The position numbers were made by a program, and so were the translations under genes. Under the pieces are notes generated by a model. It worked only from the letters and a program-made list of their open reading frames with translations. It had not been told where the DNA came from and made no database searches. Source: Escherichia phage vB_Eco_ORH_001. Taken from it: 44,456 bases of DNA. Positions 14,868-15,641 of this stretch are shown here, one piece after another (within the stretch, counting starts at the first letter, position 1; each line of letters begins with the position of its first letter). The stretch lies in the sequence record PV656001.1; one strand, given 5' to 3'.

Positions 14868-15219
14868 CGTTTCTACCCTCGAAAATAGCGTCTAAGCTCA
14901 TGATGATGTCGGATTCAAACATGCCTATATTCTGGCCTGAAACGGTGCTGTACGCCACTAAATCCGACCATCGTAACTGTTCGCGCGGGTACATCTTGAT
15001 ACCATCATCGTCCACTCGGCGGGTGAATTTGATTTCCCTGTACTTCTCGAAGGTGGTTAATAGCTCAGGGGGGCATTCTGGCCCTGTGTCCTGCGTTGCT
15101 TCCGGCGCATCTTGCATAACCCCCATAGCAATTAGCGCGGCTTTATGCCCGTCTGCGATACTGTCAAACTCCCGCCGTTTGTGGCGGGTTATAAAGTTCC
15201 AACGGGCAAACTGGAGCAA
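14860..15219 (-). CDS. tail assembly chaperone, probable -1 frameshift extension (T-like part of a G/GT pair)
   Basis: The listed start is TTG, not ATG; the frame is open upstream to 15255; heptamer GGAAAAG at 15228..15234 precedes the stop of the upstream chaperone ORF. Confidence 0.45.
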   Translation of the reverse strand: MLQFARWNFITRHKRREFDSIADGHKAALIAMGVMQDAPEATQDTGPECPPELLTTFEKYREIKFTRRVDDDGIKMYPREQLRWSDLVAYSTVSGQNIGMFESDIIMSLDAIFEGRNDG

Positions 15220-15224
15220 CGCGT

Positions 15225-15641
15225 CTACTTTTCCTGCAACTGGTGAAGCTGCTCGTTATGGAAAACAACAACGTGCTCAGCGAGGCGTTTATATTGAGAG
15301 AACAGAGTGTTCAGGTTTTCTTTATTAAATTCATCATCGAGGCTCCACCCATTAACCAGTTCAAGTGCTAACTGGCGGTTAAGGTCCGTCGCGGCGTCTT
15401 CCATCTTAATATTGTATTCCGAGAAATCTTTCAGTTCCTCGCATTTATCACGAAGCGGTTTCAATTTACCTAATGCCGCGCGGTACGCAAGTGTAAACGC
15501 CCTCATAGCTTTAACGGCAACGTCTGCCTCCGGTGAAACAACGTTCAGCCACTCCCCTGAATCGGTGCCGTCTTTCAGTGGTATTGGCATACGGGCGCCT
15601 TTTTCTGCCTCAGCTTCGTAATAAAAATCAGAAAGTTTCAT
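15225..15641 (-). CDS. tail assembly chaperone (G-like)
   Basis: 138 aa acidic protein immediately upstream of the tape measure gene. Confidence 0.5.
   Translation of the reverse strand: MKLSDFYYEAEAEKGARMPIPLKDGTDSGEWLNVVSPEADVAVKAMRAFTLAYRAALGKLKPLRDKCEELKDFSEYNIKMEDAATDLNRQLALELVNGWSLDDEFNKENLNTLFSQYKRLAEHVVVFHNEQLHQLQEK

Follow-up and report, generated by a model that had tools for sequence, protein, structure and literature searches.

Escherichia phage vB_Eco_ORH_001 (PV656001.1) encodes two overlapping tail assembly chaperone genes on the minus strand, directly upstream of its tape measure gene, and their expression probably involves recoding of the G/GT type, in which a minority of ribosomes would shift by -1 on a lysine A_AAG tetranucleotide that abuts the stop codon of the first gene, stimulated by a long-range RNA helix within the coding sequence of the second. 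The stretch of DNA analysed, here called the window, is 44,456 nucleotides (nt) long and all coordinates refer to positions in it. The phage is Kagunavirus-like and falls within the Guernseyvirinae, with Shashou, Sciku and the K1-dependent phages among its nearest relatives, and vB_Eco_Hrm2 (PV656002.1) shows 100% identity to the window over the queried region, in reverse orientation.

The first open reading frame (ORF1) encodes a G-like chaperone that matches the Pfam family Phage_TAC_4 (E = 2.5e-8) and is annotated as 'tail assembly chaperone' in PV656002, and the downstream, T-like frame matches Phage_TAC_18 (E = 1.3e-18). The downstream ORF as listed runs from a TTG start (15219..14860, minus strand). 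A preliminary description of the locus had noted that its frame stays open as far as 15255 and had suggested that the two ORFs are joined by a -1 frameshift on a GGAAAAG heptamer located just before the upstream stop. This layout was borne out, as the frame is bounded by a UAA at 15258..15256, lies in the -1 frame relative to ORF1 and overlaps it by 28 nt, and GGAAAAG corresponds to 15228..15234 read on the complementary strand and directly precedes the UAG at 15227..15225 (Table 1). The messenger RNA (mRNA) at the junction reads ...CAC CAG UUG CAG GAA AAG UAG ACG CGU UGC..., for which the -1 reading is GGA AAA GUA GAC GCG UUG. The predicted fusion, join(15641..15228, 15228..14860), comes to 260 amino acids (aa) instead of the roughly 255 first estimated, and its Glu-C peptide across K138-V139 is predicted to be KVDALLQFARWNFITRHKRRE.

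It is proposed that most ribosomes would end at the UAG and release the 138-aa chaperone, and that a minority would slip back by one base on A_AAG as tRNA-Lys moves from AAG to AAA. The slipped ribosomes would then read GUA GAC GCG UUG... in the -1 frame as far as the UGA at 14862..14860, and the resulting G-T fusion of 260 aa would end where the tape measure gene begins. The adjacent stop codon may add a 'shifty stop' effect or may merely fix the length of G.

Conservation of the probable shift site

A tblastn search with the hypothetical fusion recovered about 500 phage records that match it as two pieces in two frames over 776-782 nt, down to 43% identity. A first set of 64 distinct junctions was drawn from phage records and IMG/VR, comprising 22 clusters below 80% nucleotide identity, and a metagenome scan provided a held-out set of 30 further junctions, which brings the total to 94 distinct junctions. 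NNA AAG followed immediately by a stop codon that closes ORF1 is found in 63 of the 64 junctions of the first set and in 29 of the 30 held out (92/94 overall). The exceptions are L080, where the stop lies one codon later, and L162, a 32%-identical relative that reads GAA AAA GCC UAG. All three stop codons occur among the first 64 junctions (TAG 40, TAA 23, TGA 1), hence control specific to one release factor is unlikely.

Codon usage was counted in 78 unique fused genes, from which L080 was excluded. The lysine codon of the shift site is AAG in 78/78; at other lysine positions in these genes both AAA and AAG are used. The codon before the shift codon likewise ends in A in all 78 genes, whether the residue is Glu, Ala, Val, Ser, Gly or Lys, and the third-base entropy at codons -2 and -1 is zero. 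The valine codon of the -1 frame is GTA in 77 genes and GTG in one but never GTT or GTC (the excluded L080 has GTT), which means that the stop codon is preserved.

The P-site codon ahead of AAG varies between GAA, GCA, GUA, UCA, GGA, AAA and CAA. G_GAA_AAG, the zero-frame reading of GGAAAAG, makes up the majority of the junctions (40/64), and several lineages have C_GCA_AAG, A_GCA_AAG or G_GCA_AAG and several G_GUA_AAG or U_GUA_AAG. G_UCA_AAG and C_CAA_AAG are rare, as are the canonical heptamers G_GGA_AAG (L063, L143) and A_AAA_AAG (L086, L091). The junction of vB_Eco_ORH_001 does not conform to the canonical X_XXY_YYZ pattern, whereas it does conform to Z_ZZN in the correct phase, with A_AAG permitting cognate tRNA-Lys to re-pair on AAA, and it shares the adjoining stop that defines a 'shifty stop'. 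GGAAAAG is not enriched in the window, where it occurs 9 times against an expected 5.6 +/- 2.4, and therefore the heptamer alone is unremarkable and it is phase, position and conservation that exceed chance. Because only A_AAG is invariant and most P-site codons are unable to re-pair in the -1 frame, the conserved element, as judged from these alignments, is a Z_ZZN tetramer or NNA_AAG hexanucleotide set on a stop codon, not a heptamer of the lambda type.

This bears on the rather improbable alternative that both tRNAs slip in tandem on G_GAA_AAG as in lambda, tRNA-Glu moving from GAA to GGA and tRNA-Lys from AAG to AAA, with no RNA stimulator needed. The prevalence of GGAAAAG and the rare canonical heptamers would agree with tandem slippage, as would the documented use of 'intermediate' heptamers of the G_GA type (PMC5009743), but at least six other P-site codons (C_GCA, A_GCA, G_GCA, G_GUA, U_GUA and G_UCA) offer no -1 re-pairing and are found in lineages that keep everything else. 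Tandem slippage would also not account for the constrained synonymous positions and the covarying helix that lie downstream, both described below. The likeness to lambda G/GT that had been drawn from this sequence at the outset thus stands with regard to gene position and the A_AAG lysine slip but not to the P-site half of the heptamer, which is neither conserved nor canonical.

Two further candidate signals were rejected. The 23 nt before the site vary freely, and inspection revealed no conserved GGAG or AGGA at -10 to -14 that could represent an upstream Shine-Dalgarno-like stimulator. Transcriptional slippage was discarded on account of the A-run, which is 3-4 nt in most lineages; a run of this length is too short for the process.

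Table 1. Positions of the features of the chaperone locus in the window
Feature	Position	Strand	Remarks
ORF1, G-like tail assembly chaperone	15641..15225	-	ATG start, 138 aa, zero frame, UAG stop included
Shift site G_GAA_AAG	15228..15234	-	conserved core is the tetranucleotide A_AAG (15231..15228)
Zero-frame UAG stop	15225..15227	-	abuts the shift codon; gives the U-A of the -1 frame GUA (Val139)
T-like part, -1 frame	14860..15228	-	122 codons and UGA stop (14862..14860); G15228 read twice
Helix 5' arm GCGUUGCUCC	15222..15213	-	begins 5 nt after AAG
Helix 3' arm GGAAGCAACGC, one A bulged	15103..15093	-	128 nt past the stop, in the variable linker of the T part
Tape measure protein gene	14867..12531	-	phrog_1538, E = 1.5e-199; annotated in PV656002

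Protein continuity across the junction

An alignment of nine fusions of 44-90% identity contains no gaps across the junction. K138, V139, A141, L142 and A146 are invariant in this alignment and the motif K-V-x-A-L spans the junction. The invariance of V139 and A141 implies that codons upstream of any possible start of the second ORF are under protein constraint. In the phrog_15027 profile, which has 259 positions, ORF1 corresponds to positions 1-138 and the downstream frame to positions 136-259. Joined 'frameshift product' coding sequences (CDSs) are annotated in K1H (GU196278), K1ind1 (NC_041897), Shelanagig (NC_073195) and Shemara (NC_069152), all of which have the same gene pair, GGAAAAG followed by TAG or TAA, and fusions of 259-260 aa. 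The Shashou record in turn cites the Jerseyvirinae taxonomy paper for a predicted frameshift (PMID 25663216). The conserved frame relation, the junction itself, the lack of a conserved start and the joined annotations of relatives together support the suggestion that a programmed -1 frameshift at the lysine AAG would fuse the two chaperone ORFs.

The opposing explanation is that no frameshift takes place and that the downstream ORF is translated from TTG 15219 or ATG 15117, possibly by termination-reinitiation. The TTG is located 8 nt past the stop with AGGA 12 nt upstream of it, many records annotate two separate genes, and in one Klebsiella phage a GTG overlaps the TGA stop. An independent start is nevertheless very improbable in view of the comparison with relatives, in which neither candidate is conserved. 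The position of the TTG (15217..15219, minus strand) is occupied by CTG in 56, TTG in 21 and CTC in one of the 78 unique sequences, and it most likely just encodes residue Leu142 of the fusion and falls within the 5' arm of the helix. The two invariant residues V139 and A141 are encoded upstream of it, and the GUA that overlaps the stop is no start codon. ATG 15117 reads ATA or ATC in relatives, and the 35 codons before it are strongly conserved as protein (F159, D160, I162, G165, H166). An independent start also provides no reason for AAG in 78/78 genes or for the invariant A that precedes it. In PV656002 the T part is annotated from this internal ATG (15115-15117) as an 85-aa 'hypothetical protein' (CDS0045), and the record contains no joined frameshift CDS.

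Pseudomonas phage PMBT14 (L031, NC_048687.1) is a distant relative (27% identity) and has a canonical U_UUU_UUC heptamer (locus about 940-1010), which lies 17 codons ahead of the ORF1 stop and leads into the homologous T motif 'LDGLYQYAR'. The presence of a canonical heptamer at the equivalent place suggests that the recoding event is older than the A_AAG site. In the RefSeq record of PMBT14 no T frame is annotated, and a gap separates the chaperone and tape measure CDS features.

A chaperone pair 93% identical to the predicted fusion, with a Jerseyvirus-type junction, is carried on a 13-kb contig of a Taishania pollutisoli assembly (L114, NZ_JACVEL010000023.1). The occurrence of this contig in a Bacteroidota assembly is most likely due to phage contamination rather than a prophage. 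Prophage relatives were not found in the scan of genome contigs, which returned one close and one weak match only.

The predicted long-range helix downstream of the stop codon

Synonymous sites are frozen at the shift site and also at codons +2 and +3, the former being GCG in 77 of 78 genes and the latter CUG or UUG. The 7-mer beginning 5 nt past the AAG is matched in almost all lineages by a perfectly complementary sequence whose distance is fixed, and the helix formed by the two starts 3-5 nt past the shift codon in every lineage. The complement is located at +128 nt from the stop in the types of this phage, Shelanagig and K1ind1, where it falls into a variable linker. For the Shemara, K1H, Serratia Eta and Klebsiella types the distance is +202 nt, and the complement falls into the Gln-Arg codons of the conserved LKF(I/V)QR motif (Table 2). 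Compensatory substitutions in the two arms keep the helix intact among the relatives. Among the held-out metagenome loci with enough downstream sequence, 25/25 have a partner at exactly +128 or +202.

Table 2. Arms of the downstream helix in representative lineages
Partner position	Lineage	5' arm	3' arm
+128	This phage	GCGUUGCUCC	GGaAGCAACGC
+128	Shelanagig	GCGUUGUUUC	GAAACAACGC
+128	K1ind1	CGCGCUGUAC	GUGCAGCGCG
+202	Shemara/Eta type	...UAUGAA	UUCAUA...
+202	L079/L081 type	...UACGAA	UUCGUA...
+202	L112	...UUGAAA	UUUCAA...

Covariation was assessed in an alignment of 36 distinct sequences for the +128 group and of 33 sequences for the +202 group. Standard pairs account for 86.8% of the cells in the +128 group as compared to 19-51% when the partner is slid by 1-3 columns, and for 81.6% as compared to 22-46% in the +202 group. 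The covariation scores of 0.277 (+128) and 0.120 (+202) exceed those of the slid controls, which reach at most 0.096 and 0.044, respectively. The percentage of paired cells, the covariation score and the number of cells changed on both sides were matched by none of 500 shuffles in either group. When whole pairs changed on both sides are counted, the +202 group has 6 versus 2.2 +/- 0.8 in shuffled alignments; the +128 group has 5 versus 4.4 +/- 0.5, and 226 of 500 shuffles reach 5. Pair 19-142 of the +128 group is never unpaired, with C-G in 22 sequences and U-A in 14, and columns 140, 141, 143, 144 and 145 within the 3' arm have zero entropy amid a stretch of 1.0-1.8.

The same helix is predicted by RNAalifold when no structure is supplied, and an exhaustive anti-diagonal scan of both alignments revealed no other conserved helix of at least 7 base pairs. 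Folded in a 330-nt context, 10 of 11 representatives have a pair probability of 0.95-1.0, and the value is 0.98-1.0 for the 5' arm of this phage, whose minimum-free-energy fold includes the helix as the closing stem of a multi-branched domain. The distal pairing that characterises long-range stimulators is predicted here and is supported by covariation. The preliminary description had advised a search for a downstream stimulatory RNA structure, and the outcome of that search is a long-range helix and no conserved local one.

Local structures were tried as candidates and rejected. For hairpins or pseudoknots within 110 nt, RNAalifold returned 3 pairs at -0.15 kcal/mol with no covariation (27 diverse sequences), and in this phage a 117-nt fold has a z-score of -1.47, the partner of the 5' arm lying further off. 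A GC-rich hairpin, CCCGCC-ACAAAC-GGCGGG (15171-15188, minus strand), is situated inside the loop closed by the helix. As a conserved element it was discarded, being a property of the type of this phage and partly of the Jerseyvirus type and absent from the K1ind1 type and from distant relatives. Rfam gave no family match in 14800..15700, where only two sub-threshold snoRNA chance matches were obtained.

It is proposed that the helix 15222..15213/15103..15093, which would close a domain of about 110 nt, stimulates the slip. When GAA occupies the P site and AAG the A site, the helix would begin about 12 nt from the first P-site base, at the mRNA entrance. A stimulator placed at the mRNA entrance is the geometry of classical -1 stimulators. 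As ribosomes would mostly terminate just 5' of the helix, the T-coding RNA would seldom be traversed and would stay folded, and thus such a long loop may be tolerated. Work in Escherichia coli gives grounds to expect a stimulator, since Z_ZZN tetramers alone are close to background (0.147% versus 0.112%) and A_AAG is by far the best of them when a pseudoknot lies 5 nt downstream, at 5.6% (PMC4066793). The G:GT ratio in lambda is approximately 30:1 (PMC5009743), the range in which a frameshifting level of 5.6% falls, and given that the tetramer is barely shifty by itself a stimulator is predicted for the site of vB_Eco_ORH_001.

An alternative that retains the frameshift attributes it to the adjacent stop alone, with the tRNA slipping in the P site while the release factor is awaited. 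The helix would then have another role, possibly in mRNA stability, in the control of tape measure translation or in keeping the T region folded, or would be a by-product of coding. That a stop codon can stimulate slippage in this manner is established (Weiss et al. 1987, cited in PMC5009743). The conserved abutment of stop and AAG and the restriction of the valine codon to GTA or GTG are what such a mechanism would lead one to expect, and the loop of the helix is unusually long for a stimulator. However, all lineages have the helix beginning 3-5 nt from the shift codon, where tested stimulators use 5 nt (PMC4066793), and its 5' arm has remained fixed as the 3' partner moved between +128 and +202, which argues that a duplex at that exact position has been selected. 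L080, moreover, retains both the helix and A_AAG despite having its stop one codon later. This alternative as a whole is unlikely.

Recoding on A_AAG with stimulation by the long-range helix is still to be weighed against a number of observations that do not favour it. The case is built on sequence analysis. Both arms of the helix are coding, so that part of their conservation is protein constraint, and the covariation counts take in phylogenetically related sequences. The single-sequence fold z-score is weak (-1.76), the pairing probability of the K1ind1-type RNA is only 0.28, and the loop is large, about 110-180 nt, with no conserved stems within it. In L030 (MirsaeidiM_Esher4, PQ579973.1) the arm GCGCUC is without a convincing partner at +128, +202 or elsewhere. 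Conservation of the adjacent stop could be the result of selection on the length of G and not of its mechanistic involvement. Lastly, the genome announcement of Shashou states that there is 'no canonical slippery sequence' (PMC6776780), while that of Shelanagig, from the same laboratory, reports a slippery sequence as present (PMC6763656). The junctions of Shelanagig and Shashou are identical, GGAAAAG-TAG, and consequently the two published statements contradict each other.

Two groups of relatives deserve separate mention. In the L030/L156 lineage GCGCUC replaces GCGCUG and the T part is shorter, and this lineage is either an exception to the helix rule or uses a different pairing. The Klebsiella-phage-like members L028, L083, L090 and L142 contain complements to the 5' arm at both +121/+128 and +202, which could represent an intermediate of the partner switch or alternative conformations.

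Known recoding systems, gene context and implications

By its function and gene context the locus belongs with the G/GT class of chaperone frameshifts. As in lambda G/GT (Levin et al. 1993; Xu, Hendrix and Duda 2004, 2013, 2014), overlapping chaperone ORFs are located directly upstream of the tape measure gene, the second ORF lies in the -1 frame without a start of its own, the slip would occur on a lysine AAG close to where the first ORF ends, a fusion of low abundance is expected, and here Pfam TAC families match both parts. Unlike in lambda, only A_AAG is conserved, the site abuts the stop codon and a covarying long-range helix lies downstream. The lambda shift site is the canonical heptamer G_GGA_AAG, placed a few codons before the stop of G, and it reportedly needs no strong RNA stimulator.

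Sites of the NNA_AAG type are also known outside of phage tail genes, such as A_CGA_AAG in Bacillus subtilis cdd and G_CGA_AAG, which is used productively by IS1222 (PMC5009743). These sites resemble the one described here in that tRNA-Lys slips on A_AAG next to a P-site codon that is unable to re-pair, and in that a downstream stimulator is needed for efficiency at the percent level, a position for which the present helix is a candidate, starting 3-5 nt after AAG. The IS3 construct that has been tested has a 5-nt spacer, equal to that of this phage (PMC4066793). IS1222 and cdd differ in representing insertion sequences or incidental events and not tail chaperones, and stimulators of sites of this type take the form of a local pseudoknot or hairpin, or of a Shine-Dalgarno sequence located upstream, unlike a helix that spans about 110-190 nt.

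Long-range stimulators have been described in barley yellow dwarf virus (4 kb) and other plant RNA viruses, and related cases include the apical-loop/internal-loop pseudoknots of the IS3411 type (44-104 nt), the distal element of T7 gene 10, which acts from more than 200 nt away with an effect that is unexplained, and the three-way junction of IS911 (PMC5009743). They share with the present helix a duplex beside the shift site that is completed by sequence far downstream, and like IS911 the fold predicted here has a helix that closes a multi-branched domain. In contrast to these examples, the distal element would pair directly with the sequence next to the spacer, so forming the closing stem itself, and would not dock into a local hairpin. 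Both arms are part of the sequence that encodes the frameshift product, and the position of the partner depends on the lineage.

The tape measure gene, from its ATG onwards, shares 8 nt with the end of the T frame (ATGGCUGAUG, 14860-14867). The likely Shine-Dalgarno sequence of the tape measure gene, GAGGG (about 14868-14885), sits within the C-terminal 'FEGR' codons of the T part, whose residues F254, E255, G256 and R257 are invariant, and the FEGR motif may thus be doubly constrained, by the protein and by the Shine-Dalgarno sequence.

On its upstream side the chaperone pair does not directly follow the major tail protein gene as judged by PV656002, as an opposite-strand cluster and an HNH endonuclease gene intervene; this differs from G/GT synteny, in that the chaperone genes are cut off from the upstream tail genes, and breaks the usual order of major tail gene then chaperone genes, a difference of synteny and not of mechanism. 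According to the annotations of PV656002 and Shashou, the cluster (about 15819-18258) contains genes for a superinfection immunity protein and an exonuclease/phosphatase together with small ORFs, and the HNH endonuclease gene of the same region is on the strand of the tail genes. A sigma-70-like promoter match (TTAACA, 17-nt spacer, TAGTAT; 9 of 12) is found at 15771-15799 on the minus strand. It lies in the divergent intergenic region, about 130 nt before ORF1 starts, and the number of such matches is not above shuffled expectation.

A frameshift is already annotated in relatives, and the joined CDSs of K1H, K1ind1, Shelanagig and Shemara have the junction described here, given without an analysis of the site. 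What appears to be new is the definition of the site together with the helix and the switch of its partner, and the literature searched contains no account of a long-range stimulator in tail chaperone genes or in this group of phages. Site definition settles the contradictory published annotation of one junction as 'slippery' and 'not slippery'. It also provides a rule by which the 260-aa fusion can be annotated, NNA AAG and a stop codon, a 5-nt spacer and GCGYUG, in more than 500 genomes of Kagunavirus, Jerseyvirus, Cornellvirus and related phages, including the PV656002 record with its truncated T part. Many such phages are candidates for therapy or biocontrol, so correct models of their tail genes matter. 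The program PRFect folds windows of only 50-100 nt (PMC10885494) and would not have the helix in view, and predictors that fold 50-100 nt downstream would in general miss signals of this kind.

The chances are even that the Guernseyvirinae signal constitutes a distinct class for phage tail genes, in which A_AAG is set on a stop codon and efficiency is conferred by a long-range closing helix whose 3' partner has migrated and whose 5' arm has stayed fixed. If the proposed mechanism is true, it would be a natural phage example of tetranucleotide -1 frameshifting, and the helix would be a long-range stimulator from a bacterial virus that shows clear covariation and has switched its partner in the course of evolution. 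The ratio of G to GT in these phages would then be set by the folding of the T-region RNA, and termination at the shift site would itself keep that fold free of ribosomes.

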